Source: Opitutales bacterium
GTDB taxonomy: Bacteria > Verrucomicrobiota > Verrucomicrobiia > Opitutales > JAVBMG01
DNA length: 64,000 nt
Assembly (NCBI GenBank): GCA_031552815.1
Contig: JAVBMG010000005.1
Coordinates: forward strand, 42,406 to 106,405
Direction of reading: 5' to 3'
Numbering within the stretch: position 1 is the first letter of the stretch; every line of letters begins with the position of its first letter. This document shows, in pieces, positions 186-63,476 of the stretch. The notes beneath the pieces are model-generated. The model searched no databases. It was given only the letters and a program-made list of their open reading frames with translations, and had not been told where the DNA came from. The position numbers were made by a program, and so were the translations under genes.

Positions 186-217
186 ACGGCGGTAGCATCA
201 TGCTACCGCCGTTTTTC
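186..217 (+). terminator. Intrinsic terminator-like hairpin made of two inverted copies of the motif
   Basis: ACGGCGGTAGCAT-C-ATGCTACCGCCGT (13-bp arms, 186-212) followed by a T-run, downstream of the partial ORF ending at 127. Confidence 0.75.
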
Positions 218-392
218 TTAATTAAAAAAAGCAGTTAAGAAAAGTATAAGTGATTCAACTATTTGCGAGACTCAATCGTTATTGTGCATTTGTCGGAGTG
301 AGTTTTTTCAGTTGTTCCTTCGTTGCGAATCCATTGGATATTGATGTTTATATGTTGACCATGATAAGCAAGTTGGAATTATTAAAAACGTC

Positions 393-815
393 ATGGAGAT
401 CGAGTTAGAAGAAAAGAGAAAAATAAAGATCAGAAACCCTCGGGATATTTTTAAAATAATGCGCGAGATTCTTCTTCGCGAAAACAAGATCGATCAGGGA
501 AAAGAACATTTTTGGACTGTTGGATTGAATGGCGCAGGTCGGCTTATGTACATTGAACTTGTCAGCATGGGAACATATAATGAAACCTATGCTGTCCCAA
601 GGGATGTTTTTTCTATCGCAGTTCAAAAGAAAGCGACTCAAGTCATTGGAGTCCATAATCATCCCGACGAAAGTTTGAAATTCTCCAGACAGGATAAGAA
701 GACTACGAAGACCTTGATTGAGTCAGGACGTATACTAGGAATCGAATTTATTGACCACATTATCATTACAACAGAATCGTATACCAGCTTTTGTGAGGAA
801 GGCTTTATGAAATAA
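393..815 (+). CDS. radC: RadC-like JAB/MPN domain protein (stand-alone, no N-terminal HhH)
   Basis: KEHFW, ELVSMGT, HNHP-x6-S-x2-D and IEFIDHIII motifs of the RadC JAB domain; 140 aa. Confidence 0.85.
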   Translation: MEIELEEKRKIKIRNPRDIFKIMREILLRENKIDQGKEHFWTVGLNGAGRLMYIELVSMGTYNETYAVPRDVFSIAVQKKATQVIGVHNHPDESLKFSRQDKKTTKTLIESGRILGIEFIDHIIITTESYTSFCEEGFMK

Positions 816-1117
816 CCTTCATCGCGTGGAAATGAAGCTAACTGATAGTTCGAGTAAGCGACGATAAGCGAAATATGAATTGTGACGCATGGAGTCCTTA
901 TCGGTATTTTGGCGTCCGGATCACGAATAATCCCCGGTCTCTGTTCTGTTTTCTCCCTTTTAATTTACGGCAGACAAATCTGTCATATCTTTTCCCAGTC
1001 TTTAAGTTGACAATCTGCCGGAGTCGTTACGATTTTCCTGCTCGACAATAAAAGAGGGTCGGCGTATTGATTTTATGCCAAAAATTCCTAATTTTCCTAA
1101 CCTTTTCAGGACAATAA

Positions 1118-3019
1118 ATGAGTGAACCATTAAAACACGAGTGCGGGATTGCAGTAATACGGTTGCTTAAGCCGTTATCCTATTTCCAAGAGAAATATGG
1201 AAATCCCCTTTATGCGTATCACAAGCTTTTCCTTCTGATGGAAAAGCAACATAACCGAGGTCAGGACGGAGCCGGTATCGGTTGCGTGAAGTTTAGTGTC
1301 CCGTTGGGGCAACCGTTCATGTTCAGAAAACGCGCGGTTTCGCAGAATTCATTGATGCGTATCTTTGATGAGTCTTTGGCTGATTACAATCGCATGGTGG
1401 CCGACGGTATCATTGATCCGGATTCCCCGGAAACAGTAAAGAAGCACTTTGATTTCGGCGGTGAATTGCTGATCGGGCATTTGCGTTATGGTACCGCCGG
1501 AAACTACGGGGTCAGCGCATGTCACCCCTATTACCGGCGCAGTAACTGGGTGACGCAGAATCTCATGTTGCTTGGTAACTTCAACATGACGAATTCGGCG
1601 GATCTGAACCAGCAGTTGGTTGATCGCGGACAGCATCCGATTTTCGATACCGATACGCAGGCTGTGCTTGAGTCTGTGGGTTATTTCCTGGATGAGGCGC
1701 ACAGTAAAATTTACAAGGAGGTTCGCGGCAGTGTTCCCGGGCATGAAATTCCTTCCATCATCAGCGAACGTCTGGATCCGGCCGGGGTTCTGAAACAATG
1801 TGCTCCAGGATGGGATGGCGGCTTTACGATTGCGGGAGTCATCGGGAACGGCGATTGCTTTGTGATCCGTGACCGTTGGGGAATCCGTCCCTGTTTCTAT
1901 TTCCAGAATGATGAATTTCTGGTCTTTGCGTCGGAGCGCGTTCCGTTGATGAGTGTCTTCGATCAGCCGGCAGAATCAATCAATGAGTTGCCGCCGGCTC
2001 ATGTTTTTGTTGCCAAACGGGACGGCAGCATGAGTTGCATTCCTTATTGCGAGCCCGGTGAAAAGAAAAGCTGTTCCTTCGAGAGCATTTATTTCTCACG
2101 GGGAAATGACCCCGTTATTTATCACGAGCGAAAAGCCTTGGGCCGTGCGCTGTGCGATCCGATATTGAAAGCTGTTGATTACGATCTGGAAAACAGCGTG
2201 TTCAGTTATATTCCGAATACAGCCGAATCTGCCTACTACGGACTTATCCAGGAGTTACGCCGTTTTTATCGCATGCGTATCAAGCGGACCTTGCTGAATG
2301 CTTTCAAGGCAGGCACGCTGACAGAGAAAATGATTGAGGTAGCCCTTGATTACGGGCATCCGCGGATGGAAAAAATTGCGCTGAAAGACATCAAGCTCCG
2401 TACCTTTATTTCCGAGGAAGGACGGCGTGAAACGCTTGCCTCGCACGTGTATGACGTGACGTATGGTGTCGTGAAACCGAATGACAATCTCATCGTGCTT
2501 GATGACTCCATTGTACGCGGCACTACGCTCAAAAAATCCATTTTACGAATCCTGAGCCGGACGAATCCGAAGCGGATAATCATTGCGTCCACGGCTCCCC
2601 AGATACGTTATCCCGACTGCTATGGTATTGATATGTCGGAGTTCGGCAAGCTGGTTGCCTTTGACGCGGCCATTTCCCTGCTTCATGAACGCAGCCTGAG
2701 TTACATCATCGACGACGTGTACAAGGATTGTCTGAAATCCATCGAAGATAAAAACCAGAAGAATCACGTGAAACGCATTTACGAACCGTTTACCGACGAC
2801 GAAATTTCCGCCCGTATTTCCGAGCTGGTCAGCCCGACCAATATTTCCTGGAAAGGTGAAATTCAGTTGATTTTCCAATCCATAGAAAACCTGCATCAAT
2901 GTACATCCTTGCGGGGAGATTGGTATTTCTCCGGCGATTATCCGACGCCGGGAGGAAACAGGGTATCCAATCAGGCATTCATCAACTATTACGAACACAA
3001 AAGCGGACGCGCTTATTGA
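1118..3019 (+). CDS. purF: Amidophosphoribosyltransferase (long form)
   Basis: HECGI catalytic Cys after a short propeptide, QHNRGQDGAG, HLRYGT, PRPP-binding VLDDSIVRGTT, PDCYGID. Confidence 0.95.
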   Translation: MSEPLKHECGIAVIRLLKPLSYFQEKYGNPLYAYHKLFLLMEKQHNRGQDGAGIGCVKFSVPLGQPFMFRKRAVSQNSLMRIFDESLADYNRMVADGIIDPDSPETVKKHFDFGGELLIGHLRYGTAGNYGVSACHPYYRRSNWVTQNLMLLGNFNMTNSADLNQQLVDRGQHPIFDTDTQAVLESVGYFLDEAHSKIYKEVRGSVPGHEIPSIISERLDPAGVLKQCAPGWDGGFTIAGVIGNGDCFVIRDRWGIRPCFYFQNDEFLVFASERVPLMSVFDQPAESINELPPAHVFVAKRDGSMSCIPYCEPGEKKSCSFESIYFSRGNDPVIYHERKALGRALCDPILKAVDYDLENSVFSYIPNTAESAYYGLIQELRRFYRMRIKRTLLNAFKAGTLTEKMIEVALDYGHPRMEKIALKDIKLRTFISEEGRRETLASHVYDVTYGVVKPNDNLIVLDDSIVRGTTLKKSILRILSRTNPKRIIIASTAPQIRYPDCYGIDMSEFGKLVAFDAAISLLHERSLSYIIDDVYKDCLKSIEDKNQKNHVKRIYEPFTDDEISARISELVSPTNISWKGEIQLIFQSIENLHQCTSLRGDWYFSGDYPTPGGNRVSNQAFINYYEHKSGRAY

Positions 3020-3022
3020 ATC

Positions 3023-3571
3023 ATGACGGAAGAAACGGTCAAAATATCTACCGGTGAAATCGCCGGGGCCATTGATAACATGGCATCGGCGATAGCTCAA
3101 AAGCATGCCGCCGTGCAAACGTTGACGCTGGTTGCCATCGCAAATGGCGGGATCATCCTTACTCAACGGTTGTTCAACAGACTAAAGACGCAATTCAAAG
3201 ACCGTATTCATCTTGGTACGATAGACATAACGTTTCATCGCGATGATATTTTCCGGCGGCCCATACCCAAGGCGAGCGAAATTACCGATTTACCGCAGAC
3301 CATCGAGGAGGGTGTTGTTATTCTGGTGGACGATGTGCTTTTCAGCGGACGAAGCAGCCGCGCAGCCATCAACGAACTTTTTGACCAGGGACGTCCCGAA
3401 CGGGTCGAATTGGCCGTGTTCGTAGATCGTGGTCATCAGCGCCTGCCTATCCGTGCGGATTACGTGGGCATAACGCTCAAAACCGATCGGACGGATAAAG
3501 TGCTTGTTCACCTGGATGCTACCGCGCCGGATAACGACAATGTTACGATACAAAAGCAATTAAAGGCATAA
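3023..3571 (+). CDS. pyrR: Pyrimidine regulatory protein / uracil phosphoribosyltransferase PyrR
   Basis: DITFHRDD, VILVDDVLFSGR, VDRGHQRLPIRADYVG; directly upstream of pyrB. Confidence 0.93.
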   Translation: MTEETVKISTGEIAGAIDNMASAIAQKHAAVQTLTLVAIANGGIILTQRLFNRLKTQFKDRIHLGTIDITFHRDDIFRRPIPKASEITDLPQTIEEGVVILVDDVLFSGRSSRAAINELFDQGRPERVELAVFVDRGHQRLPIRADYVGITLKTDRTDKVLVHLDATAPDNDNVTIQKQLKA

Positions 3572-3574
3572 TTT

Positions 3575-4510
3575 ATGACTTGGACACGAAAAGACCTTGT
3601 AGGAATCGAAGAGTTAAACCGCGAAGAAATCGAGTTTGTGCTCGATACCGCGAAGTCATTCAAGAAGGTGCTTGAACGTCCCAACAAAAAACTCCCTTCT
3701 TTACGCGGGAAAACCGTTGTTCACCTGTTTCTTGAACCGTCCACCCGGACGCTCATTTCCTTTGAGACCGCCGCCATGCGGCTCAGTGCGGATATCATCA
3801 ATGTTTCCGGCAGCACGTCCAGTGTGACAAAGGGGGAATCGCTCCGTGACACGGCTGAAAATATACAGGCGCTGAAAGGTGATGTCATCGTGCTGCGCCA
3901 TTCATCTTCCGGTGCCGCCCATTATCTTGCCCGCATCATGCGAATTCCCGTCCTTAACGGTGGGGACGGTTCGCATGAACATCCGACGCAAGCCTTGCTT
4001 GATGCATTTACTCTCCGGGAAAATTTCGGGGATGATCTCAGCAAGCTGAACATCACGATTGTCGGTGACATTCTTTTCAGTCGTGTTGCCCGTTCAAACA
4101 TCTGGTTGCTTACGAAGCTTGGCGCAAAGGTTACCTTATGCGGTCCGAATACGCTTGTTCCGAAGGGTCTTGAAAAAATGGGAGTCCGCGTTTCCCATAA
4201 CCTGCAGGAAGCTATAAAGGATGCCGATGCCGTAATGCTTCTCCGGATCCAGCACGAACGCATGAATGCTTCCTATTTTCCGTCCCTGGGCGAATACAGG
4301 GCGAGTTTCGGGCTGACCCGGGATCGTGTGAACTGGTTGAAGGACAAGGCCATCATCATGCATCCGGGACCGATCAACCGCGGGGTCGAGCTTGACTCCG
4401 AAGTGGCCGATTCATCCCGTTCAGTGATTCTTAACCAGGTGACAAACGGAATTGCTGTCCGTATGGCAGGATTGTACCTGTGTTCTGCCGCTGCCGCACA
4501 GATGGACTGA
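3575..4510 (+). CDS. pyrB: Aspartate carbamoyltransferase catalytic subunit
   Basis: FLEPSTRT, KGESLRDT, HPTQALLD, MHPGPINRGVE. Confidence 0.97.
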   Translation: MTWTRKDLVGIEELNREEIEFVLDTAKSFKKVLERPNKKLPSLRGKTVVHLFLEPSTRTLISFETAAMRLSADIINVSGSTSSVTKGESLRDTAENIQALKGDVIVLRHSSSGAAHYLARIMRIPVLNGGDGSHEHPTQALLDAFTLRENFGDDLSKLNITIVGDILFSRVARSNIWLLTKLGAKVTLCGPNTLVPKGLEKMGVRVSHNLQEAIKDADAVMLLRIQHERMNASYFPSLGEYRASFGLTRDRVNWLKDKAIIMHPGPINRGVELDSEVADSSRSVILNQVTNGIAVRMAGLYLCSAAAAQMD

Positions 4511-4557
4511 TATCCCATGCTACCGTAACAAATAACTACTGCTAATCAAGAAAGCTC

Positions 4558-5853
4558 ATGTCAAAAGTCTTATGGATTTCCAATGGTCGGGTGATTGATC
4601 CGAAAAACAAACGTGACGGAATCGGCGATCTTTACGCCGTGGATGGGAAAATCGTTGCGTCATTGACTGACGAACAGAAGAAATCCGCGGAGAAAGTGGA
4701 TGCTTCGGGGCTTGTTGTCTGCCCCGGGTTTGTCGATATCCATGTGCATTTCCGCGAACCGGGTCAGACGCATAAGGAAAGCATACTGACCGGTTCGGAA
4801 GCGGCTGCAGCAGGAGGGTTTACATCCGTTGTCTGTATGGCCAACACGACGCCGCCCATTGATAATCCCGGTCTTGTCCAATCGCTGAAGGACATTATCG
4901 CACGTGATGCGATCGTGAATGTTTATCTGACAGCAACATTGACAAAAGGCATGGAAGGCAAGGAACTGAGTCCCACCGGTTCACTGAAAAAAGCCGGAGT
5001 GGTTGCCTTGACGGATGACGGGCTTTGCGTGCAGGACAATGAAATCATGCGACGCGGCGTGGAGTATGCGCATATGCACGGATTGCCTGTAAGTGATCAT
5101 TGTCAGGATGTGAGTCTTACGCGGGGCGCTGTCATGCACGAGGGCGATTGGTCCCTGCGCCTTGGTTTGAAAGGTTGGCCCGCTGCCGCCGAAGACCTGA
5201 TGGTCAGCCGTAATATTATTCTTTCGGAATACACGGGAGCGCAGATACACCTTCAACACATTTCCTCGGCCTATTCGGTTGACTTGATCCGCGGGGCGAA
5301 AAAACGCGGTGTTAATGTTACCGCTGAGGCGACACCGCATCATATCACGCTTACCGATTCCTGCCTGAAGGATTACAATACGAATTTCAAAATGAATCCT
5401 CCGCTCAGGACGGATAAGGACAGGGCAGCTTTGATTGCCGGATTGCTGGATGGTAGCATTGATGCGATCTCAACCGATCATGCGCCGCACTCCTTCACCG
5501 AAAAGGATCAGGAGATCGACAAGGCACCGTTTGGAATTATCGGACTGGAAACTTCCTTTGCGGTTTGCATGGAAACACTGGTTGAAGGAAAACATTGCGA
5601 CCTGCCTTTCCTTATCGGCCTCATGACTTGCAAAGCTTCCGAGGTTTTGAAACTGGGAAAAGGCACCTTGTCTGCGGGCGAAGCGGCTGATATAGCGATT
5701 ATTGATCCGGACGAAACCTGGGTATTTGATAAAAGCTCGGTTTTCGGGCGCTCCAAGAATTCGCCGTGGCTCGGGAAGACATTCAAGGGAAGGGTAAAGA
5801 AAACGATTGTCGCCGGGAAAATCGTTTTTGATGGCAACAAGATTATTCGCTGA
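4558..5853 (+). CDS. pyrC: Dihydroorotase (type I, multifunctional-complex type)
   Basis: DIHVHFREPG, LTDDG, KMNPPLR, TDHAPH metal and catalytic motifs. Confidence 0.95.
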   Translation: MSKVLWISNGRVIDPKNKRDGIGDLYAVDGKIVASLTDEQKKSAEKVDASGLVVCPGFVDIHVHFREPGQTHKESILTGSEAAAAGGFTSVVCMANTTPPIDNPGLVQSLKDIIARDAIVNVYLTATLTKGMEGKELSPTGSLKKAGVVALTDDGLCVQDNEIMRRGVEYAHMHGLPVSDHCQDVSLTRGAVMHEGDWSLRLGLKGWPAAAEDLMVSRNIILSEYTGAQIHLQHISSAYSVDLIRGAKKRGVNVTAEATPHHITLTDSCLKDYNTNFKMNPPLRTDKDRAALIAGLLDGSIDAISTDHAPHSFTEKDQEIDKAPFGIIGLETSFAVCMETLVEGKHCDLPFLIGLMTCKASEVLKLGKGTLSAGEAADIAIIDPDETWVFDKSSVFGRSKNSPWLGKTFKGRVKKTIVAGKIVFDGNKIIR

Positions 5854-5856
5854 ACA

Positions 5857-6585
5857 ATGTTACCGCGAAAGCCTGAGAGCAATAACGCATATTACCAGAT
5901 ATTGCTTATTTTTTCGGGGACGCTTGCTGCCATGTTTTTCGGTTTCCTTTTGGGCCGGTTATTCACACCCGGGGGTGAAATCAGTTATGCGGTCTCAAAC
6001 ATGGTAGCGTTTTCGTTTATTCTCTGTTTCTATGTCCTGTTGCACTTCTTTTCGCCGTTTTCCCTTATCAAGTACCTTCAGGAAAAGAAGCTGCCGTTTG
6101 GCAAGGCGCTTTTTTGCGGTATCCTGGGCGGAATCATTGCTTATCCGTTGATTGTGTTTTTATCCGCGGGGGTTCAGGCTGTGCTCGAGACCCCTTTTAT
6201 CAAGGTATTTCTTGAGCGGATCGGCTTGGATGTTTCCTTGCAGGAATCCGTGCTGACAATAACAGAGACAAATGATCCCTGGGTATTGTCATTGATGGTT
6301 TTTACGATCGTTGTGCTTGCTCCCTTGTGCGAGGAAATATTTTTCCGGGGGTGTTTATACAGAATGTTCCGTTCTTATGTGGGCGTTATTTTCGGAGCCA
6401 TACTGAGCGGACTTATCTTCGGCATTATCCATTTTAATCTGGCAGCTATATTACCGCTTGTTTTCTTTGGCATATTTCTTGCCTTTTTATACGAGAAAAG
6501 CGGTGATATACGGGTGCCGATTATTACACATGCTTTTTATAACGGTCTAAGTGTTCTGCTTATGGTTTTCGTCGAAGCAGCTTGA
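5857..6585 (+). CDS. CPBP (Abi/CAAX) family intramembrane metalloprotease
   Basis: Multiple transmembrane segments; PLCEEIFFRG, FGIIH, THAFYN motifs. Confidence 0.88.
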   Translation: MLPRKPESNNAYYQILLIFSGTLAAMFFGFLLGRLFTPGGEISYAVSNMVAFSFILCFYVLLHFFSPFSLIKYLQEKKLPFGKALFCGILGGIIAYPLIVFLSAGVQAVLETPFIKVFLERIGLDVSLQESVLTITETNDPWVLSLMVFTIVVLAPLCEEIFFRGCLYRMFRSYVGVIFGAILSGLIFGIIHFNLAAILPLVFFGIFLAFLYEKSGDIRVPIITHAFYNGLSVLLMVFVEAA

Positions 6586-6706
6586 TAAAGTGATAATTAT
6601 GTTTACTTAAGAAATTAAGGACATTTAATTAATTTTTCATGTAAATAAACAACCTATGACGTATCGGCTTTCCCTTTACCCTTTTTAACAGAACCGATCC
6701 TGACTA

Positions 6707-8371
6707 ATGGAATTTGAAAAAATAACCACTGTTTTTGATAACGAAGAAAAAAGTTTTGCCGAGAAGCATCGTGAAGAACTGGACGGTCATGTAGCGAACA
6801 TGATATTACGTTCTTTGGCCAGTGCACCGTTGAAAAACATCGTGGTGGATCATGCGGTTGGCCGTCGTCCGATCAAGGCAGGCATGTTGTTGGCCCTGGC
6901 ATTGAGTTTTTCCGAAAAGATGAAACAGTTCATCCATTCGGATCGTGTGGGAATTGTTTTGCCGCCGGGAATTCCTTCCATTGTGGTTAACCTTGCGACG
7001 CTATTTGCGAACAAGATACCAGTAAACCTGAATTTTACGCTCGGGCGTAATTCACTGGAGTCGTCCATGCAGATCGCGGGTATAAAGACCGTGATCACGG
7101 TCGATGCCATGCGCGATAAACTAAAGGACTTTCCCTGGCCGAAAGACACGATTGACTTTGTTGGCGTGGTCAAACGTTTCAGCAAGTTCAGTTTGATCAG
7201 GCGTTGCGTATTGGTGAACATGTTACCGGGGAAAATGTTGGCCAGGATTTACGATATTCCCACAACCGGGGGCAATAAGGAGGCCACGCTTTTGTTTACA
7301 AGCGGTAGCGTCGGTGAACCGAAAGGTGTGTTGCTTACGCATCGGAACATCATCGGAAATGTGATGCAGATACTGGATTTGCTTCCCGAAGTAAAATCCG
7401 GTCACAAGCTGCTTGCCAACCTGCCGGTGTTTCACAGTTTTGGATTTACGGTAGGCATGTGTTTACCGCTGATGATTAACCTTCCTCTGGTGACTTGTCC
7501 GTCTCCGTTGGACGTGAAAAAGAATATCAAGGCTATCGCCGAGGATAAGCCAACGATACTGTTGGGAACACCTACCTTTTTGCGGCCATACTTGAAGCGT
7601 GCCACGACCGAGCAAATGTCTCCGATAAAGATTGTGGTGGCTGGCGCAGAGAAAGCGCCGGAAGACCTGATTCAGGCGTGGGAAAAACATTTTTCCTGTA
7701 TCTTCATTGAAGGATACGGCATGACGGAAGCATCACCCATTGTTTCATTGAACCTGTTGACAGAGAAAGACCGCCGGGCTGGTTCTGTTGGCAGAATTTG
7801 TCCCGGTATGTCCGCGCGTGTGGTCGATCCGGAATCCGGCATGCCGCTGAAACTCGGAGACGAAGGTATTTTGCAGATTCATGGCGTAAATGTCTTTGGC
7901 GGCTATTTCCAGGACCCGGAACGAACGATCCAGGTTTTGCACAAGGGATGGTTCCATACCGGCGATTTGGCAAGGATAGACCAGGACGGATTTCTGTTCA
8001 TTGAGGGACGCATTTCCCGTTTCTCGAAAATCGGCGGAGAGATGGTTCCCCATGGAACGATAGAGGAAGCCGTTGTACGTGCCTTAAAGCTTGAGGAAGA
8101 GGAAAAATTGCCCTTGGCGGTAACAAGCCGGCTCGACACGACGAAAGGCGAGGTGCTTGTGGTGTTAAATACTTTACCGGATGTCACGCTTGATTCGGTC
8201 AAGCAGATCCTTTCCGATGCGGGATTTCCGAACCTGTGGATTCCCCGCGAAATGAAGATGGTTCCGGAAATTCCCACATTGCTTACGGGAAAGCTGGACA
8301 TACGGGCCTGCCGGGAAGTTGCCTCGCGTAATGAGGATACGAATGCATCCTTTGAGGATTTGAGCAGTTAA
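6707..8371 (+). CDS. AMP-binding acyl-ACP/acyl-CoA synthetase (like the Aas C-terminal domain)
   Basis: LFTSGSVGEPKG P-loop, EGYGMTE, HTGDLARID, GRISRFSKIGGEMV, TGKLD. Confidence 0.88.
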   Translation: MEFEKITTVFDNEEKSFAEKHREELDGHVANMILRSLASAPLKNIVVDHAVGRRPIKAGMLLALALSFSEKMKQFIHSDRVGIVLPPGIPSIVVNLATLFANKIPVNLNFTLGRNSLESSMQIAGIKTVITVDAMRDKLKDFPWPKDTIDFVGVVKRFSKFSLIRRCVLVNMLPGKMLARIYDIPTTGGNKEATLLFTSGSVGEPKGVLLTHRNIIGNVMQILDLLPEVKSGHKLLANLPVFHSFGFTVGMCLPLMINLPLVTCPSPLDVKKNIKAIAEDKPTILLGTPTFLRPYLKRATTEQMSPIKIVVAGAEKAPEDLIQAWEKHFSCIFIEGYGMTEASPIVSLNLLTEKDRRAGSVGRICPGMSARVVDPESGMPLKLGDEGILQIHGVNVFGGYFQDPERTIQVLHKGWFHTGDLARIDQDGFLFIEGRISRFSKIGGEMVPHGTIEEAVVRALKLEEEEKLPLAVTSRLDTTKGEVLVVLNTLPDVTLDSVKQILSDAGFPNLWIPREMKMVPEIPTLLTGKLDIRACREVASRNEDTNASFEDLSS

Positions 8372-8477
8372 TGCTGGTGTAGGCGGAGCGGCGATATGTC
8401 GCGCGGGTGTCTGTTATTTTTAAGTTTCTTATTTTTTGTGACCCTGTACTGTTGGAAACGAAATTACTTTTGCTTAT

Positions 8478-9245: not shown

Positions 9246-9333
9246 CTCGGTTTGCTTTGTAAAATAATACCAGCTACAAATAAAGGTTGCGGATGAATAG
9301 TCGGGAAGGATAGAACCTAGATACGTTAATCCA

Positions 9334-11253: not shown

Positions 11254-11271
11254 CCTGATGAATAAGCATCT

Positions 11272-17960: not shown

Positions 17961-17966
17961 TTTCGG

Positions 17967-51312: not shown

Positions 51313-51317
51313 CAGAT

Positions 51318-51345
51318 ACGGTAGCATTATGCTACCGTCTCTTTT
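51318..51345 (+). terminator. Motif-pair hairpin filling the ilvE-mcsB gap
   Basis: ACGGTAGCAT-T-ATGCTACCGT then CTCTTTT, immediately before the mcsB ATG. Confidence 0.65.
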
Positions 51346-52416: not shown

Positions 52417-52425
52417 GATGCTTTC

Positions 52426-52725: not shown

Positions 52726-52773
52726 CCGTAAAAACTTGCTAAGCGAACCCGCGCCCGTATCTTTTGGATAAGC

Positions 52774-53031: not shown

Positions 53032-53042
53032 CCCGTCACGTT

Positions 53043-54880: not shown

Positions 54881-54912
54881 CTGACGGTAGCATAGAAATC
54901 ATTTAACAAGAT

Positions 54913-55491
54913 ATGAAAACGATGTCCAAATACAGTTTCCTTTTCGTCTCGGCCGTAGCATGCGGTCTCTTCTCCGCTTGCTCAACCCCGGCAAAATACG
55001 TTGATGCAAACAGTCCCGAAGGTATTGTCAGCATGGACCAGATTGATATTCAGGATTGGTCCCTGGCGGCGGATTCGATGATCCATTCGATGATTGATAC
55101 GGGTGTCGTGAACCGTGTTCCCGTAAAGCCTGCGATTCTCGCGATCAGTCGCATGGTTAATAATACAAGCGAGCATGTGGATGTCGATTTGCTGACAAAG
55201 AAGATCCGTACTTCCTTACTGAAAACCGGCCAGGTTGAAACCACAATGATGGTTGGCACTACGACAGCAGAGGATCCGCTGGCCCAGGAACTTGTAAACA
55301 AAGAGAACGTACGTAAGCCCGATTTTATTCTTTCAGGGAAAATCATTGAGGCAAATGCGCGCGCCGGAAAGATCAAACAGGTTTCGTATGTCTTCCAGAT
55401 GACATTGACATCGACCGTCAGCGGAAATGCAGTTTGGGAAGAGGAAAAAACTATCAGCAAACAAGGCTCGGAAAATACTGTTGGCTGGTAA
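54913..55491 (+). CDS. lpoB: Penicillin-binding protein activator LpoB-like lipoprotein
   Basis: Lipobox FSA|C; NNTSEHVDVDLLTKKIRTSL, PDFILSGKI, YVFQMTL..GNAVWEEEK. Confidence 0.82.
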   Translation: MKTMSKYSFLFVSAVACGLFSACSTPAKYVDANSPEGIVSMDQIDIQDWSLAADSMIHSMIDTGVVNRVPVKPAILAISRMVNNTSEHVDVDLLTKKIRTSLLKTGQVETTMMVGTTTAEDPLAQELVNKENVRKPDFILSGKIIEANARAGKIKQVSYVFQMTLTSTVSGNAVWEEEKTISKQGSENTVGW

Positions 55492-55508
55492 GTAAATGTG
55501 ATTTGCAC

Positions 55509-55543
55509 ACAAAAGGCGGTAGCATGATGCTACCGCCTTTTGT
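55509..55543. terminator. Bidirectional motif-pair terminator between the convergent lpoB and ECF operons
   Basis: ACAAAAGGCGGTAGCAT-G-ATGCTACCGCCTTTTGT, 17-bp perfect arms with U-tracts on both strands. Confidence 0.8.
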
Positions 55544-55568
55544 ATATCTATTGCTTCGGAATGACTGT

Positions 55569-55940
55569 TTATGAGCGACCAGATTCAAGTGAGGATTCGT
55601 AATTCTGCCATTGTTCGCAGAAAAAATAAAAAGCAACTATGATCAAAAGAGGCATGGCATAAGAAACAAATGGAAAAATGTTTTGCAGGTAGTTTTGAGT
55701 CGGATAGCAATGTTCAAAAGAAGAAAAGTCCATACTCAGGCATACGAATCCGATAATGTAAATTAACATCACAGAGGCCATTATTGCGAAAAGACGGTTC
55801 CGTTTTTTTCGGGCGAGTATAATGGCATTTTGGACTTTGATGGCTTCCATAACGGCTTCCGGGAATTCTTCAGGAGCGTCCAGTTTGCTGTTTTGGATCA
55901 ATACGAAAAGTAGTTTATCTGATGAAGGATCGTTGTTCAT
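55569..55940 (-). CDS. Small membrane protein, candidate anti-sigma factor
   Basis: Overlaps the sigma gene stop (ATGA); APEEFPEAVM soluble N-terminus plus two TM helices. Confidence 0.6.
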   Translation of the reverse strand: MNNDPSSDKLLFVLIQNSKLDAPEEFPEAVMEAIKVQNAIILARKKRNRLFAIMASVMLIYIIGFVCLSMDFSSFEHCYPTQNYLQNIFPFVSYAMPLLIIVAFYFFCEQWQNYESSLESGRS

Positions 55941-56506
55941 AGTAAATAGGCGGTTTCTTGTCTTAGATGGAGTTTGAGCTGTTCGTGGAAGTGTTTACGT
56001 GCGCGGAACAGTTTTACTTTTATATTGGATTCATTCAGTCCGGTGATTTCCGCAATTTCAGAAATCGAACATGATTCCAGATAATAGAGAGTCAAAAGAA
56101 CGCTTTCGTCCGATGGGATCAAATCCAGAATATCTTGGGTGACTTTCTTGATATCGGCAATTTCAAGAATTTTTTGATAGTTGTGCTCTTGGATAAAGTC
56201 ACCAGGCGTATCGTCGGTATCATGACTTTCCGCAAAAAACCGATTGGATTTGGAGCGGCACTTCATCATGGCGGTACGGTAAACGATACGGAAAAACCAT
56301 GTCGAAAATTTTGATTGTTTCTTAAACGAAGAAAGCCCTTTGTAAGCGTTAAGAAACGATTCTTGCACCGCATCTCGTGTGTCTTCATGATTTCTCAAAA
56401 CACGAAAGGCGATGGAAAATGCCATATCCTGATATGCGGTAACAAGCAATGAAAACGCGTTGACGTTACCATTGAGGACGGCAGCTATGATTGAGCTTTC
56501 GTCCAC
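55937..56506 (-). CDS. ECF RNA polymerase sigma factor (GTG start)
   Basis: DAVQESFLNAY, FSTWFFRIVY (region 2); LYYLESCSISEIAEITGLNESNIKVKLFRAR (region 4.2). Confidence 0.93.
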   Translation of the reverse strand: MDESSIIAAVLNGNVNAFSLLVTAYQDMAFSIAFRVLRNHEDTRDAVQESFLNAYKGLSSFKKQSKFSTWFFRIVYRTAMMKCRSKSNRFFAESHDTDDTPGDFIQEHNYQKILEIADIKKVTQDILDLIPSDESVLLTLYYLESCSISEIAEITGLNESNIKVKLFRARKHFHEQLKLHLRQETAYLL

Positions 56507-56508
56507 GT

Positions 56509-56943
56509 TTATTCGACATGATTTACTGTTGGATCGTCTGTTTTGCTTTTACGCTTATCGTCCGGCGTAAAGATTGCACTGACAAGAAGCCCAAGCCCAC
56601 CCAATGTTAATGCGGATATACAGATAATGATACCGGCCTTCGGCGGGATGCATTGAAAATATTCGCTTACAAAAAATCCTATCATTGCGCCGATTCCGAG
56701 ACCGAGCATCAAAGAGCCCCTGCGAATGATTGTGGCCCTGCGGGTCGTGGGTTCTTCGATGATCATCCCTTTGTCTATCATCATCATTTTTTCTGTATGT
56801 TTATTTTTAAGATAGGCCAGGGAAAAACGTATTGCGCATAAAATAGGAAGAGCGATGGCAAAAATAAAAAATGAAGCGATGGCAAAAAACGGAATCATGA
56901 GGGCTAATTCTTCAGTACTTAAGAATGCGAGAATGTTTAACAT
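56509..56943 (-). CDS. DUF6249-like membrane protein
   Basis: N-terminal TM, KHTEKMMMIDKG, then GSLMLGLGIG and a C-terminal TM; upstream of the ECF sigma gene. Confidence 0.65.
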   Translation of the reverse strand: MLNILAFLSTEELALMIPFFAIASFFIFAIALPILCAIRFSLAYLKNKHTEKMMMIDKGMIIEEPTTRRATIIRRGSLMLGLGIGAMIGFFVSEYFQCIPPKAGIIICISALTLGGLGLLVSAIFTPDDKRKSKTDDPTVNHVE

Positions 56944-57075
56944 AATAAATCGGGTTAAAAGTTAATATTTGCGTATAAGGATAAGATGCAACGAGAAGGA
57001 ATTGGGTTACAAAGATTTTGATGGGTAAAGAGATATTGGATAATTTGAGAAGCAATACGTGCAAAACATGTGTAT

Positions 57076-57116
57076 ACAGATAAGGGCGGTAGCATTACGC
57101 TACCGCCCTTATCTGT
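57076..57116 (-). terminator. Motif-pair hairpin immediately downstream of recJ
   Basis: ACAGATAAGGGCGGTAGC-ATTAC-GCTACCGCCCTTATCTGT, 18-bp perfect arms, 6 nt from the recJ stop; weak U-tract. Confidence 0.7.
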
Positions 57117-57122
57117 TAAATG

Positions 57123-58859
57123 TCATTGTGATTTTTGGGACAAACGCCAATCAAGTACTTCGATTTGCGGAATTCGTTTTCCGTTCCAACGGTTCCATCC
57201 GATTTTTATTGCAAAATCTGTAGGCTTATTTACCGGAGGTTTATTTTTCCCGAAATGCCAGGCTACGCAGGAAATATACTCGTTATTCGCACAACGGATG
57301 GAGAAGCGGCAATGAGCATTGTCGCGGCCGAAAATCAGAGGATCGCGGTCAAGAAGTACATTGTGAATGCCCAGTATGGGTTCAGGGTTGGCCTGTCCGA
57401 AAGGATGCAACATGGAGAACTCTTCCAGAATGGTTGTTCCCAGTTCCTTCTGATCGACCCAGGCGCTGATTTCCAATGTCGGTGTTGGCAAAACACCGTT
57501 AAGCGCTTTGGTAACAAGGTCTTGAAAACGTTCCTTGAATGCGTCTACCTTTGATCTGTGAACAGCTATGCCGATTGCCATCGGATGTCCGCCCCATGCC
57601 TCAAGAAGGTCAGAGCATTGGGAAAGAATTTCCACGAGATTCAGCCCAGGGATGCTACGGCCTGAGCCTTTTGCCATGTCGCCTTCGAGTCCGAGAACAA
57701 TGCTTGGCCTGTGGAAACTACGGCAAAGCTTACCCGCTACGATGCCAACGACACCCGGGTGCCAGGATTCGCTGAAAATAACAAGGCCCAGTTTTCCTTT
57801 TTCCACCATGTTACCTGCTATTTTGAAAGCCTCATCGGAAATGGTTTTTTCAATATCCTGACGCTCCCTGTTCATGTCCTGCAATGCGGTAGCAATTCCC
57901 AGGCAGTAATCATAGTTCGGGGAAAGCAGCATATCTATGGGGAGTTTTGCGTCGGCGAGCCGTCCGCTTGCGTTGATGCGGGGGCTCAGTTTGAAAGCAA
58001 CATCATTCGGAAGTACTTCCTGTCCGGCGTTCATTCCCGATACATCAAAAAGCGCATGCAATCCTTGGCGCTTTGTATTTTGCAAACGCATCAACCCGTA
58101 ACGGGCGAGAATGCGGTTCTCGTCGAGAAGGGGCACGAGATCGGCAATGGTTCCCATGGCAACCAGATCAAGGTATTCTTTCAGAGACAAAGTGTGGGCG
58201 GTATCATTTCCCTGATTACGCAATTCCTTGAGCAATCCGTGAACCAGCTTGAAAACCAATCCTACCGTACAGAAATTTGACCAGGGTTTTCCTTCGCCGT
58301 CCCAGACGTGGGGGTTGATAAGGATACAATCCTGCGAGGGTGATTCCTTGGATTGGTGGTGATCAACGATCAGTACATCAATTCCTTTCTGCCGTAAAAA
58401 CGCAACTTCCTGCGAGGAATTCGTTCCGCAATCCAAGGCTATCAAAAGATCCGGTTTTTTGCGTTCAAGCACTCTTTCAAGAACCGCAATGGAGAGTCCA
58501 TATCCTTCTTCCATGCGTAAAGGTACAAAATACTCAGGACGCAGGCCAAACTCCCGGAGAATGCTGACAAGAAGGGTCGTGCTGGTGACGCCGTCCACGT
58601 CATAATCGCCGATGATATAGACCATTTCACGCTTGTGAATTGCTTCAAGCAAACGTTTCACGGCAGGGCGTAAACAGGATATTTCGAAAGGGTCTTTAAG
58701 ATCCTGCAGTCGCGGCTGCAAGAAGTGCTTTGCGGATTCGACGGTCTTGATGCCGTTTCCGGCGAGCAATGTAGCAAGGATTTTGCTTGAGCCTAATCCC
58801 TGCTGGAGAATGTCTGTGGTTTGCTGACAGACATTCTTAGTGATCCAGTGCGTATCCAT
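57123..58859 (-). CDS. recJ: Single-stranded DNA 5'-3' exonuclease RecJ
   Basis: GDYDVDG, RMEEGYG, LDCG, VDHH (DHH), GTIAD, PRINASGR, GSGRS, GGHPMAIG. Confidence 0.96.
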   Translation of the reverse strand: MDTHWITKNVCQQTTDILQQGLGSSKILATLLAGNGIKTVESAKHFLQPRLQDLKDPFEISCLRPAVKRLLEAIHKREMVYIIGDYDVDGVTSTTLLVSILREFGLRPEYFVPLRMEEGYGLSIAVLERVLERKKPDLLIALDCGTNSSQEVAFLRQKGIDVLIVDHHQSKESPSQDCILINPHVWDGEGKPWSNFCTVGLVFKLVHGLLKELRNQGNDTAHTLSLKEYLDLVAMGTIADLVPLLDENRILARYGLMRLQNTKRQGLHALFDVSGMNAGQEVLPNDVAFKLSPRINASGRLADAKLPIDMLLSPNYDYCLGIATALQDMNRERQDIEKTISDEAFKIAGNMVEKGKLGLVIFSESWHPGVVGIVAGKLCRSFHRPSIVLGLEGDMAKGSGRSIPGLNLVEILSQCSDLLEAWGGHPMAIGIAVHRSKVDAFKERFQDLVTKALNGVLPTPTLEISAWVDQKELGTTILEEFSMLHPFGQANPEPILGIHNVLLDRDPLIFGRDNAHCRFSIRCANNEYISCVAWHFGKNKPPVNKPTDFAIKIGWNRWNGKRIPQIEVLDWRLSQKSQ

Positions 58860-58885
58860 TGCCCAATTTCACTCCCGAAAAATGC

Positions 58886-61459
58886 TTATTGCTTCTTGCT
58901 GGCCTTGCTGCCTGATTGCCATTCGTAACTCGGAAGTATATCGTGCGTTTCTTCCACGTGGCGACGGTTTCCTTTGTGATACCAGTAGAAAACCGGAGCG
59001 GCGATATAGATGGATGAGAACGTTCCCGTGATAATACCCATTGAAAATACGAATGCGAAATCTTTGATGATTCCTGTTCCGAAGAAGTACAAGGCAAGTG
59101 AAGACGCCAAGGTGGTCGAGCTTGTAAGAATGGAACGTACCAACACATGGTTTGTAGCAAGGTTGATGACATCATAAAGACTCATCGTCGGATTCATCTT
59201 CAGTTCTTCGCGGATACGGTCAAATACGACGATGGTGTCATTGATGGAGTAACCGACAATCATTAATACTGCGGCCACCATCGGAGAACTGAATTGTCCG
59301 CCGTAGATCACGAAAATACCGATGGCTGTAAGTATATCGAAAACGGTTGAAACCACTGCGCCGACACCATATCCCCATTCAAACCGGAACGCGATATAAA
59401 GCAATATGCCGGCAAGAGCAAGCACCATGGAGTAGAGTGTATATGTCGCAATCTCATTACCGACGCTTGGCCCGATCTCCGATTTTGAAATGACTTTTAA
59501 GTCAGCTTGCGGGAATGTTTGGACTAAAGCGCGGATAGTCTTGTCCGATTGTTTCGGAGGCGTTTGCAACTTCATCTCTTCAACTTCTGAACCGATAGGC
59601 TTCTGATAAGTGACAGTTATTTCACCGAGATTCATTCTTGAATTCAGATCATCAATGCTCGCTATTTCGATTTTATGATCCTTGTTGAAACTCATGACGA
59701 CTTCATCACCACCGGTGAAGTCGACACCGAACATACGATCAAATTTGAATCCGAAAGCGACTACGCCGGCAATAACAATGGCCCATCCGATTCCGAAAGC
59801 AGCTTTCCGGTATTTCATGTAGTCGAATTTGAATTTGTTCGTGAACTTGACCAGCAAGAGTTTGTGCGTGATATCGAAGTGCACCAACAGCTCGGTCAAT
59901 CCGCGGGAAAGCACGAGCACGCTGAACATGGAGGAAATAACACCGATGGTGAGCGTAACGCCGAAACCTTTGATCGGTCCGATACCCATCCACATAAGGA
60001 TGACACCGATGATCAGGGTGGTAAGGTTTGCGTCGACGATGGTTGAGAACGCTTTGTCAAAGGCGGCGTATAATGCCGTCTTTACGGATTTTCCGGCATT
60101 CAATTCTTCACGCATACGTTCCATGATGAGGATGTTACCGTCAACAGCCGTTCCTGCCGTGATAACGAGTGCCGCAATACTTGGCAGGCTCATGGTAGCG
60201 CCAAACATGGCGAGCGTTCCCAATACGATGATTACGTTTACGGCAATGGATATAACCGCAATGATTCCGGAAATACCATAGAAGAAAATCATGAAGACAA
60301 CAACCGCACCGACACCGTAAAGACCGGCTTGAATGGATTGTGAAGCTGCTTCTTCCGCAAGTGTCGGTCCGATTTCACTTTGTTCTTCGATAACCAGTTC
60401 AAATTCGAGCGGGTTGTTCAGAACGTTAGCGAGCTCTTCAGCTTCACGGGTCGTAAAGTTACCGGTGATTTGCGCGTTTCCTCCGGCAATTTCATTTTGA
60501 ACGGTGGGAGCGCTGTACAGTTTTCCGTCAAGCACGATAGCGAGTTGTCCCGGGCGACCGCCGCGCCGTAAATTTTCATCGGCAATACGTTTGGTGATTG
60601 CAGCAAATTTATCCGAACCTTCCTTGGTGAATTCCATCAGAACTTCCGGAGCCCCGTATTGGCTTTGTGAAGCGCGTGCACGCTTGATAATGCTACCGTC
60701 TGTCTCCGGCTTTATTTTGACAAAGTAAGGGTAGCGTACGAGCTCACCGGTTGTCTTATCTTCATCTTCCAGGACCTTGATTTCGTAACCGACAGGTGTT
60801 TCAACGCCTGATGAAGGATGAAGGGTTGTATGTACCAGGCGGAATTCCAGTTTAGCCGGTTTTTTTACCATATTGATGATTTCCGGGTCATCCTTGGTGC
60901 TGGCTCCCGGAATCTGGATCTCAATACGGTCTGCGCCTTTTGCGCGGACGATGGCTTCGGCAATGCCGAGTCCGTTAATACGTTCGGAAAGAATGTTGAT
61001 AGCCTGGTTAAGGTTTTTTTCTTTCTTAACCATTGCTCCGTTTTCCTCGATGATTTTATCTTCTGCTCTCAGCGTCACGGAAATACCGCCTTTAAGGTCT
61101 AAACCGAGCTTCAGTTTACCTTTGGAGCTTCTCAGGAGTTCCTGGAGGAGAATGTTGTTACGGGTACGAAGGTTTTTAATGTCGTGAACCTTGATCTGGG
61201 GAAAGAATTTTGAATAGTCAATCTGTTCGATTTCACCCAGATCGCGCAATGCTACCAGCAGGGCTTTCTGTTTTCCTTCGTCGTCCTGTTGTTCTTTGGC
61301 TCTGGCTACCAGTTGTTCAAAAGCCGTTTTTTGGTCCTGGGCTACCTGGTCAAACAAATAGGATTCAAAAGGCCGATCCTTGATCGGGATCATTGCTGAG
61401 ATGGCAAGCAGTAAAACAACTGCTGTTAGTACGAGTCTTCCAAAAATGCGGCTACCCAT
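58886..61459 (-). CDS. secDF: Fused protein translocase subunit SecDF
   Basis: LGLDLKGG, AIVLDG..SAP, GPTL, AVDGNILIMERMREE, IVDAN; SecF part GVDFTGG, GYSINDTIVVFDRIRE. Confidence 0.96.
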   Translation of the reverse strand: MGSRIFGRLVLTAVVLLLAISAMIPIKDRPFESYLFDQVAQDQKTAFEQLVARAKEQQDDEGKQKALLVALRDLGEIEQIDYSKFFPQIKVHDIKNLRTRNNILLQELLRSSKGKLKLGLDLKGGISVTLRAEDKIIEENGAMVKKEKNLNQAINILSERINGLGIAEAIVRAKGADRIEIQIPGASTKDDPEIINMVKKPAKLEFRLVHTTLHPSSGVETPVGYEIKVLEDEDKTTGELVRYPYFVKIKPETDGSIIKRARASQSQYGAPEVLMEFTKEGSDKFAAITKRIADENLRRGGRPGQLAIVLDGKLYSAPTVQNEIAGGNAQITGNFTTREAEELANVLNNPLEFELVIEEQSEIGPTLAEEAASQSIQAGLYGVGAVVVFMIFFYGISGIIAVISIAVNVIIVLGTLAMFGATMSLPSIAALVITAGTAVDGNILIMERMREELNAGKSVKTALYAAFDKAFSTIVDANLTTLIIGVILMWMGIGPIKGFGVTLTIGVISSMFSVLVLSRGLTELLVHFDITHKLLLVKFTNKFKFDYMKYRKAAFGIGWAIVIAGVVAFGFKFDRMFGVDFTGGDEVVMSFNKDHKIEIASIDDLNSRMNLGEITVTYQKPIGSEVEEMKLQTPPKQSDKTIRALVQTFPQADLKVISKSEIGPSVGNEIATYTLYSMVLALAGILLYIAFRFEWGYGVGAVVSTVFDILTAIGIFVIYGGQFSSPMVAAVLMIVGYSINDTIVVFDRIREELKMNPTMSLYDVINLATNHVLVRSILTSSTTLASSLALYFFGTGIIKDFAFVFSMGIITGTFSSIYIAAPVFYWYHKGNRRHVEETHDILPSYEWQSGSKASKKQ

Positions 61460-61486
61460 AAAAAGGAGTGTGGAGGTTAAAATAAA

Positions 61487-61834
61487 TTAGGCTTTTTTCT
61501 CGGAGTCTTCGTCCTTGTTGACCTTGATCTTTACGAAAGCCTTGGCGATTTCAAACTTGGTGTTATCCGCGGTGCGGATAATGAAACGGTCGTCTTTCAC
61601 ATTCGTTATGGTTCCGAAAATACCGCCTTCCGTAAGCACATCGTCGCCGGATTTCAGCTCATTGATCATTTTCTGGTGTTGCTTTTGCTGCTTGTTTTGG
61701 CGTCCGCTCATGATAAACATGAAGCCGATAAGAAGCAGGAGCGGAATCATCATCATCCAGGGACTGCCTTGTCCGTTTTCTGCAGCCTGTTCCGCCAAAG
61801 GAAGGAAAGAAAAATCAAAGTTCATAAATAGCAA
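61487..61834 (-). CDS. yajC: Preprotein translocase subunit YajC
   Basis: Single TM, RQNKQQKQHQKMINELKSGDDVLTEGGIFGTI; upstream of secDF. Confidence 0.95.
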   Translation of the reverse strand: MLFMNFDFSFLPLAEQAAENGQGSPWMMMIPLLLLIGFMFIMSGRQNKQQKQHQKMINELKSGDDVLTEGGIFGTITNVKDDRFIIRTADNTKFEIAKAFVKIKVNKDEDSEKKA

Positions 61835-61953
61835 TATGTTTTAAAGTTCTTATTCAAGCTTTTCGACCTTAAAAGGCAAGCAGATTGTCCATGCTACCGC
61901 GCTTTGCGGAAGGGTTGGCAATGCGTAAGCAATCAATGGGGAATCAGCTTTTT

Positions 61954-62514
61954 TTATTGTTTGCTTATCAGGAATAATTCGGGGGAGCGGCGGACAAGTG
62001 TTTTTGGGGCAAAGTGTTGCCCTGAATATTGTTTTATCAGGGTCAGAAGGAACGGTGCAATGGATTCATGTTCGATCAATCCCTCCGGGTGCCCCGGATA
62101 AGTCATGACACTGAGAAAACCGTCAGGTTTGATAAGTTCCCATGCCTGCATGAGGGCATCCAGAGTTGTTTCTGCCTTCGTCGTGATTTTATGGTTTCCG
62201 CTCGGAAGATAGCCCAGATTAAAAACGGTGGCATGAATATTTTCCGGATAGTGTAACGGGAAATAGTGTTTCAGATTTGCGTGCGTGTCGCAGAGTAGTG
62301 TGGCACGGGATATCATCCCTGCGGCTTCCAGGCGTTGAACGGTAGCTTGGATGGCTTCGTCTTGGATATCAAAGGCAAACACTTTAGCACCCTCTCCGAC
62401 GCATTCTGCTAATATCAGAGTGTCATGTCCATTGCCGGCGGTAGCATCAATGACCGATTGTCCCGGTTGGATGTGCTTACGCCAGAATGCATGGGCAATT
62501 TCGGTCAGGCGCAT
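61954..62514 (-). CDS. Class I SAM methyltransferase of the YtqB/MnmM (PF06962-like) family
   Basis: VIDATAGNGHDT, FDIQ, FNLGYLPSG, YPGHPEG. Confidence 0.82.
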   Translation of the reverse strand: MRLTEIAHAFWRKHIQPGQSVIDATAGNGHDTLILAECVGEGAKVFAFDIQDEAIQATVQRLEAAGMISRATLLCDTHANLKHYFPLHYPENIHATVFNLGYLPSGNHKITTKAETTLDALMQAWELIKPDGFLSVMTYPGHPEGLIEHESIAPFLLTLIKQYSGQHFAPKTLVRRSPELFLISKQ

Positions 62515-62519
62515 TGGAT

Positions 62520-63353
62520 TTAAAGATAATTATTCAGAAGAAACCAGGCATCCTGGGGAATTACTTCCGGTCGGGCGGTACGATCCAGTCCCCATGACGA
62601 GAGGGATGCTATCCATTCGGGAAGACGCGGAAACGCTTCGGACTGTTGCTTACAGAGTGAACCGATTTGCTTTCGCCGTTGGGTGAAAATACGACGAATG
62701 AGATTACGTGCGGTTGGAGAAAGTGTTCGCGGTTGCTTTTTTCTTTCAAGGTGCAATAGCATACTGTCCACTCCCGGGACCGGATAAAAACATTGGCGTG
62801 CGACAGGATGAACACCGGATTTTTCGTAAGCAAGGCTGAGAAAAATGGTGATCGGGGAATAATGCTTATGACCGACTTCAGCAGTGAAGCGGTCTGCGGC
62901 TTCCTGTTGCAACATCATAACCATCGTTTCAGGAAGCGGTCCGCCAAGAATTGCTTCGAGCCAAGGCGTGGAAATCGCATAGGGTAGGTTGGCGACAATT
63001 TTGAAGTTGGCGGTATCCTGGGGTAAATCGCCTAAGGGAAAATCCAGCGCATCGCCTTCCCTGAGATGAAAAGTGGCAGGGTATTTGAGGCAGAGGGAGG
63101 AACGAAGGTATGCTGCCAATCGGGGGTCGAATTCCACCGCATAGACGGTACATCCGGCTTCCAGCAACGCACCGGTCAGGGTTCCGAGCCCGGGGCCGAT
63201 TTCGAGTACGGTGTCGCCGGGATGGATATTTGCCAGGGCAAGTGACTTTCTGACGATGTTGCCGTCTACCAGGAAATTCTGTCCGAGATTTTTATTCGGA
63301 TGATGTCCTAAGGTTTCAAGGAGCGTTTTTGTCTCTGTTGGCGATAGCGGCAT
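62520..63353 (-). CDS. rsmA: 16S rRNA m6,2A1518/1519 dimethyltransferase
   Basis: KNLGQNFLVD, EIGPGLG, ANLPY, MLQQE, FYPVPGVDS, FTQRRK. Confidence 0.95.
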   Translation of the reverse strand: MPLSPTETKTLLETLGHHPNKNLGQNFLVDGNIVRKSLALANIHPGDTVLEIGPGLGTLTGALLEAGCTVYAVEFDPRLAAYLRSSLCLKYPATFHLREGDALDFPLGDLPQDTANFKIVANLPYAISTPWLEAILGGPLPETMVMMLQQEAADRFTAEVGHKHYSPITIFLSLAYEKSGVHPVARQCFYPVPGVDSMLLHLERKKQPRTLSPTARNLIRRIFTQRRKQIGSLCKQQSEAFPRLPEWIASLSSWGLDRTARPEVIPQDAWFLLNNYL

Positions 63354-63438
63354 GGCGAAAATCAGACAACAAACAATACGGAATGGATTTCAGAAGCAAT
63401 AATAGATTCGATGAGATACTTGCGCATTGGGAAACGAA

Positions 63439-63476
63439 AATAAAAAAGACGGTAGCATGGTGATGCTACCGTCTTT
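63439..63476 (-). terminator. Motif-pair intrinsic terminator of tsf
   Basis: AAAGACGGTAGCAT-GGTG-ATGCTACCGTCTTT (14-bp arms), followed on the minus strand by a T-run; 17 nt after the tsf stop. Confidence 0.8.

Follow-up and report, generated by a model that had tools for sequence, protein, structure and literature searches.

Why should hairpins at the 3′ ends of genes be assembled from one and the same short word? The question is raised by six hairpins in a 64,000-nucleotide stretch of a bacterial genome (the window; C4:42406-106405 of a 2.49 Mb assembly in 17 contigs with 47.4% GC). A preliminary description of the window reported five hairpins sharing a common core, one of them with a single mismatch, and a sixth at 17005-17031 built from an A-variant. 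It placed them all just after stop codons or between convergent genes and noted that their outer arms differ. Each of these points is confirmed by the sequence. Its broader proposal, that these are terminators built around a fixed word core and not copies of one mobile element, is supported by the placement of the hairpins at gene 3′ ends, the polarity of their T-tracts, the co-variation of their arms and the mostly single occurrence of the word inside genes. The explanation favoured here, with a probability of roughly 80%, is that the hairpins are Rho-independent (intrinsic) terminators, some of them bidirectional, with stems predicted to consist of two inverted, mostly head-to-head copies of G-R-CGGTAGCAT. 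The best named homologues of the RecJ, SecDF and McsB proteins belong to Opitutales, Opitutaceae and other Verrucomicrobiota, at identities of only ~50-60%. By these homologues the host is an Opitutales-like member of the Verrucomicrobiota, outside the Neisseriaceae and Pasteurellaceae.

An abundant word and its pairs at gene ends

The 9-mer CGGTAGCAT is the commonest 9-mer of the genome (1316 copies) and is followed by its variants CGGTAACAT (591 copies) and CGGCAGCAT (386 copies). The 8-mer GGTAGCAT is found 1433 times genome-wide, 751 times on the + strand; the window has 33 copies where shuffles predict 1.0. Its copies lie inside genes in 81% of cases, as judged by gene calls from a simple heuristic of our own. 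The word mostly occurs singly there, and from 1055 single intragenic copies of the 9-mer the extended consensus G-R-CGGTAGCAT-(not A)-(not T) emerges, beyond which the base composition is flat: A makes up 21-30% and T 20-33% at positions -15 to -3, so that there is no A- or T-rich extension. The word therefore has the abundance profile of an uptake word: at least ~1000 copies per genome, equally on both strands and in the majority intragenic.

Close pairs of the word are strongly biased in orientation. Exact 8-mer pairs at most 10 nucleotides (nt) apart comprise 28 head-to-head, 2 tail-to-tail and 2 direct pairs genome-wide, where a simulation predicts 0.73 head-to-head pairs. When the arms are shortened to 7-mers (CGGTAGC/GCTACCG) around a loop of 3-15 nt, 46 exact head-to-head pairs appear, every one of them intergenic, and the set of intergenic hairpins grows to 72 if a single mismatch is tolerated. 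Exact tail-to-tail pairs of the 7-mer are intergenic in 10 of 11 cases and resemble terminators with a T-run right after ...CGGTAGC.

The 72 hairpins occupy the places expected of terminators. Thirty lie between convergent genes, 41 between co-directional genes and one in a divergent region, compared with 197, 834 and 238 among all intergenic regions, so that convergent regions are enriched (p = 3e-7) and divergent regions depleted (p = 1e-5). A median of 21 nt separates the stop codon from the stem base. The tails follow the direction of the genes: a T-tail alone is seen in 10 regions between two + strand genes and an A-tail alone in none, while regions between two - strand genes have 0 and 14, respectively (p = 5e-7 for polarity). 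In total, a T-tract stands on the side that gene direction predicts in 57 of the 72 cases. Since the word itself has no A/T extension, these tails belong to the terminators and not to the word.

The word also makes up a considerable part of the predicted terminators, a share that the preliminary description had proposed to compute. Our own hairpin-plus-T-tail scan, confined to at most 150 nt after a same-strand stop codon, gives 218 candidates genome-wide. The exact 8-mer is present in at least one arm of 48 (22%), and the number rises to 69 (32%) if a single mismatch is tolerated; the top stem 8-mer among all candidates is ATGCTACC. Word density is 11.1 per kb in the candidate hairpins versus 0.58 per kb genome-wide, a 19-fold difference, and is 0.62 per kb in other non-coding DNA. 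Hairpins contain 109 of the 270 non-genic copies (40%). The 69 word-bearing candidates have a median folding free energy of -16.6 kcal/mol and are similar to word-free candidates in free energy, tail strength and distance from the stop codon. In co-directional regions the ratio of sense to antisense candidates is 34:1 for the word-bearing and 117:27 for the word-free class, which makes the word-bearing class the cleaner one. From placement, polarity and share we infer that transcription terminates at these hairpins.

The six hairpins of the window

The pattern GGTAGCAT-N1-4-ATGCTACC occurs four times in the window, at 191-207, 51320-51336, 55518-55534 and 63451-63470, versus 0 expected. On RNA folding, each of the six hairpins forms one dominant strong structure (-15.8 to -35.2 kcal/mol, z = -4.6 to -9.5), and none of 200 shuffles matches the fold strength of any of them. 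A consensus terminator scan ranks window hairpins first and third in positions 1-20000 and places them as the top three in 44001-64000. The only one of the six that it does not call is 57076-57116, which is also the only one without a U-tract. All six lie 6-58 nt past a stop codon. Their outer arms differ in the degenerate R of the extended word, which co-varies between arms (GGC/GCC versus GAC/GTC), and in their A/T tracts.

The first predicted word-pair terminator (185-221, + strand) reads GACGGCGGTAGCAT-C-ATGCTACCGCCGTT, then TTTCTT, with a folding energy of -23.5 kcal/mol, and is the top match of the scan in its part of the window. A small zinc-ribbon open reading frame ends (stop at 127) 58 nt before its hairpin (185-213), and a RadC-like gene follows. 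The reading frame (1-127) is FmdB-like with CxxC motifs and was overlooked by our gene caller; the RadC-like gene (393-815) encodes a JAB domain.

The hairpin at 17005-17031 is built from the variant CGGTAAC (CCGGTAAC...GTTACCGG) and is one of 10 such A-A pairs genome-wide. It is part of a candidate terminator at 16993-17032 (- strand), in which the variant pair GGCCGGTAAC...GTTACCGGCT is accompanied by UUUUUUAUUUU on the minus strand (-17.4 kcal/mol). It lies 30 nt from each of the convergent stops of a SET-domain gene (16487-16975) and a gene with multiple EF-hands (17061-17855), which thus have a single A-variant candidate terminator in common. SET and EF-hand domains are more typical of eukaryotes.

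A third predicted terminator (51318-51348, + strand) has the form ACGGTAGCAT-T-ATGCTACCGT, then CTCTTTTATG, and the lowest stability of the six (-15.8 kcal/mol). The hairpin (51318-51338) lies 6 nt past the stop of a class IV aminotransferase gene, in the 33-nt spacer that separates this gene from one for an arginine kinase (McsB-like), whose ATG at 51346 overlaps with the tail of the terminator. The public call of the kinase gene (51346-52416) begins 13 codons downstream and gives 343 aa; alignment with a sister lineage (see below) favours the ATG at 51346. With this start the U-tract lies on the start codon, and a role of the hairpin in translation or attenuation is possible.

The fourth (55503-55549) is predicted to be bidirectional, reads ACAAAAGGCGGTAGCAT-G-ATGCTACCGCCTTTTGT (-27.0 kcal/mol) and is again the top match of the scan in its part of the window. 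Its hairpin (55509-55543) is 18 nt past the stop of an LpoB-like lipoprotein gene (54913-55491, + strand) and 26 nt from the stop of a convergent gene for a small membrane protein (55569-55940, - strand). The last (63434-63476, - strand) consists of AAAGACGGTAGCAT-CACC-ATGCTACCGTCTTT, then TTTATTTTCG on the minus strand (-21.0 kcal/mol). This predicted terminator lies, with position 63476, 18 nt past the stop of tsf (EF-Ts) and precedes ksgA/rsmA.

The hairpin at 57076-57116 (- strand) has an 18-bp stem and is either terminator-like or protects a 3′ end. It is the most stable of the six (-35.2 kcal/mol), lies 7 nt past the recJ stop (57123) and precedes an operon of DUF6249 and ECF (extracytoplasmic function) sigma factor genes. 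One of its words is complete and the other has a single mismatch: the core at 57088 is GGTAGCAT TA CGCTACC, and the mismatch falls in the 3′ arm ACGCTACC. The stem is followed by AUACACAUGUUUUG and not by a canonical U-tract.

Two word-free structures serve as comparators. A terminator-like hairpin at 13793-13840 (+ strand; AACAATAAAGCCCATC...) lies between convergent genes, and a canonical terminator candidate at 50343-50370 (+ strand; GCCCGC-TTAACA-GCGGGC, then TTTTTT) lies 3′ of a gene for a 4954-aa autotransporter. The latter gene (35456-50320) belongs to a family of giant autotransporters of 4100-4950 aa with near-identical C-terminal beta-domains. Four paralogues lie outside the window (C13:19863-32402, C13:34419-46820, C5:83262-95756 and C5:97974-111023). 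Each of these four has a paralogous word-pair terminator at its 3′ end, whereas the window copy has the word-free one. Directly upstream of the window copy is a gene for a 1196-aa protein (31079-34669), the N-terminus of which has a weak similarity to Verru_Chthon cassette protein A (TIGR02600, E = 5.6e-6, far short of the cutoff).

Arm co-variation, relatives and rival explanations

The two arms of the hairpins change together. At the R position they form 36 A-T, 21 G-C and 8 G-T pairs and no A-C pair (p = 7e-11). Arms are homotypic, word with word or variant with variant, in 57 of 71 pairs versus 36% expected. What distinguishes the terminators that follow the paralogous genes for autotransporters of 4100-4350 aa is a GA/TC double indel, which is compensated. 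Of the 46 exact pairs, 31 have the commonest form, CGGTAGCAT-N-ATGCTACCG, a near-perfect palindrome of 19-21 bp. Where the loop reads ATNAT, as it does in 31 hairpins, its position 2 is T in all 31 and its position 4 is A in 26. As these two bases are kept although they are unpaired, a structural and a word-specific constraint both seem to act on the hairpins.

A sister lineage is represented in the Logan run SRR26434396 (75% identity in SecDF, 68% in McsB), where it was reached only via these two proteins. No 9-mer is commoner there than the word, which occurs 8 times in 16 kb. No paired hairpin is present in 25.7 kb of its DNA, which is uninformative either way with ~0.7 expected. The aminotransferase-mcsB gene pair is conserved, and the site orthologous to the hairpin at 51318-51338 keeps the 3′ arm, ATGCTACCGTC, and has ACGAAAAAAAT in place of the 5′ arm; this spacer has no significant fold (-8.1 kcal/mol, z = -0.5). 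The lone 3′ arm argues, at this single site, against the insertion of a ready-made palindrome. Judged from one orthologous site, it would fit a pair that was assembled, or has decayed, around a resident single word.

Six contigs of the nearest RecJ relatives (51-54% identity) do not carry the word. An exact-pattern scan of genome contigs for GGTAGCATNATGCTACC gives at least 113 scattered single matches in unrelated taxa, about the level of chance, and the word is not enriched there. A metagenome scan for RCGGTAGCATNATGCTACCGY yields 19 contigs, none of them word-enriched. Most of these 19 matches are an unrelated operator-like palindrome by gene starts in high-GC peat and soil contigs. This palindrome, ACGGTAGCATAATGCTACCGT, recurs beside CTGACTCAT, the reverse of a ATGAGTCAG gene start (loci L119, L121, L122, L125, L126, L130 and L134-L137, and Acidobacteriaceae/Terracidiphilus genome loci). 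It looks like a conserved operator of that peat and soil clade, its identity with the hairpin core being coincidental.

Several points weigh against intrinsic termination as the common function. The asymmetry between G-U and A-C, by which a strand test could have proved RNA-level selection, amounts to 11:7 inside the core and lacks significance there; the overall ratio of 43:12 is confounded by the T-tails and is not counted as evidence. The co-variation of the arms could be explained at the DNA level by quasi-palindrome correction. The hairpin at 51318-51338 is not essential, as the sister lineage has none at the only orthologous site recovered. Both the terminator scan and the gene calls are simple heuristics, and the word-free class is estimated to contain ~20% false positives. 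Finally, 15 of the 72 hairpins, including 57076-57116, have no clear U-tract on either side.

The last point also speaks for the rival that fares best, in which the hairpins are not polymerase stops but elements that protect or process the 3′ ends of RNA and so stabilise mRNA. Such a role would suit at least the ~20% of the hairpins that lack a U-tract, and the recJ hairpin, very stable, tail-less and missed by the consensus scan, is an example. As a general explanation this is unlikely, given the T-tract on the gene-direction side in most of the 72 hairpins and the equal tail strength of word-bearing and word-free terminator candidates. For the ~20% of tail-less hairpins, that of recJ among them, an RNA-stabilising role is plausible.

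The preliminary description had also considered a site for a dimeric protein, or a cruciform; either would act on DNA and not on RNA. The near-perfect palindrome of the commonest form, the conservation of loop positions that would be unpaired in RNA and the failure of the wobble test to prove RNA-level selection all speak for such a site. It is nevertheless very improbable. The spacing between the 7-mer arms varies from 3 to 15 nt, unlike a fixed dimer geometry, and divergent (promoter) regions contain just one of the 72 hairpins. The polarity of the T-tracts tracks transcription. The loop bases that are conserved belong to the end of the word and are kept equally well in the 1055 single intragenic 9-mers.

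Least probable of all, and rejected here, is a spread of the hairpins as mobile palindromes, similar to repetitive extragenic palindromic (REP) sequences, their doublets (REPINs) or miniature inverted-repeat transposable elements, by an IS200-type or REP-associated tyrosine transposase (RAYT): the dozens of intergenic copies and a Y1_Tnp (RayT-like) gene, the only one in the genome (C1:13043-13717; PF01797, E = 3.9e-12), would agree with it, but the word is mostly intragenic and single, the hairpins have the word alone in common while outer arms, loops and flanks vary except after paralogous genes, the orthologous sister site holds a lone arm and neither an empty site nor a full element, and a search for a dedicated transposase with identical flanking copies, the outcome that the preliminary description had named as contrary to its proposal, showed that the repeat on the flanks of the RayT-like gene is another one, CCCGAGGRCKGGYGCGCTCC (5 copies), and that the gene has no word hairpin beside it. 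The locus C1:13043-14200 contains this Y1 transposase gene beside three copies of its own REP-like repeat, with two further copies at C5:52932 and C8:63899, and resembles a small REP/RAYT system that has no relation to the abundant word.

The word as a possible uptake signal and its known counterparts

If the hairpins are intrinsic terminators, a possible origin can be proposed for them. A terminator stem accepts any sequence provided that its arms pair, so that a resident single word could be converted into a stem by a complementary copy; the pair would then be retained by selection for termination. The GC-rich GRCGG with which the word begins makes up the stem base and adjoins a U-tract from outside the word, and the CAT end closes a loop of 3 nt (U-N-A in the commonest form). 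The preference for head-to-head pairs would probably reflect the setting of the GRCGG end at the stem base next to the U-tract. The word would owe its spread through the genome to a force that acts on it specifically; the likeliest candidate is biased DNA uptake, as with the uptake signal sequence (USS) and the DNA uptake sequence (DUS).

A further reading is more tentative, with chances slightly short of even. By analogy with USS and DUS, we infer that the word may be a genuine uptake signal, of independent origin in the Planctomycetes-Verrucomicrobia-Chlamydiae group (Opitutales), and that this may be the third convergent co-option of an uptake word into terminator stems, with the pairs assembled in place. 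Assembly in place, in which a single word gains a complementary arm, is suggested by the sister spacer that keeps only the 3′ arm. The genome encodes DprA (PF02481, E = 4.5e-77) and a single ComEC-like protein (PF03772, E = 2.6e-47; C10:286961-288601). The latter is short (546 aa) and has the Competence domain without the C-terminal metallo-beta-lactamase domain. ComEC and DprA are necessary for uptake but not diagnostic of it, being widespread in bacteria that are not known as competent.

Word-pair terminators are a classic hallmark accompanying DNA uptake sequences. To our knowledge, they have so far been documented in Neisseriaceae and Pasteurellaceae only. The predicted terminators described here have the same word-pair architecture, made from an unrelated word in an uncultured lineage of a different phylum. 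An unrelated word with quantitatively similar statistics strengthens the case for a word-specific process, probably self-biased DNA uptake, and for a wider distribution of sequence-specific competence than thought. On a practical level, the hairpins mark operon ends in a genome without experimental annotation.

The same tests were applied to Neisseria and Pasteurellaceae by Kingsford, Ayanbule and Salzberg 2007 (PMC1852404), who found USS and DUS pairs to be enriched between convergent genes, with A- and T-tails that follow gene direction. In Neisseria and Haemophilus the extended motif confounds the inference from tails (PMC1852404). The Opitutales word supplies no A- or T-tails in its extended form, and its U-tracts can therefore be attributed to termination alone. 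This removes the caveat around which Kingsford et al. argued and makes the present genome a cleaner test case than the classic systems. The share of terminators with the word, 22-32% here, compares with published values of 16-57%.

REP and REPIN elements with their RAYTs in E. coli and Pseudomonas are likewise short intergenic palindromes, often at gene 3′ ends and able to terminate transcription or stabilise mRNA. In contrast to the present hairpins, however, REPs are extragenic and conserved over their full length, whereas here the word alone is common, most of its copies are intragenic and the RayT-like gene has its own separate repeat.

The DUS of Neisseriaceae (GCCGTCTGAA ... TTCAGACGGC) resembles the present word in a strong bias to one head-to-head configuration, 226:5 inverted pairs in N. 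meningitidis and 28:2 here (PMC1852404). It differs in reach, being found in 54-57% of high-confidence terminators, with 81% of the considered intergenic copies in terminators (PMC1852404), compared with 22-32% and 40% here. It also differs in that the AAAT of the extended DUS gives the tails and explains the bias.

The USS of Pasteurellaceae (AAGTGCGGT; Haemophilus influenzae, Pasteurella multocida and Mannheimia succiniciproducens) is closer in its numbers. With ~1400 9-mers per ~2 Mb, found in either orientation and for the most part intragenic, it is similarly abundant, and its close inverted pairs likewise form terminator stems. It occurs in 16-29% of high-confidence terminators, against 22% here, and 29-42% of considered intergenic copies are in terminators (34% in H. 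influenzae), against 40% of all non-genic copies in hairpins here (PMC1852404). In contrast, the present word belongs to another phylum, is unrelated in sequence and has no A/T-rich flanks in its extended form, and its orientation bias of 28:2 is stronger than the ~2:1 of H. influenzae (~50:25; PMC1852404). Overall, the system is thus Pasteurellaceae-like in both shares, that of terminators with the word and that of non-genic words in hairpins, and Neisseria-like in its orientation bias.

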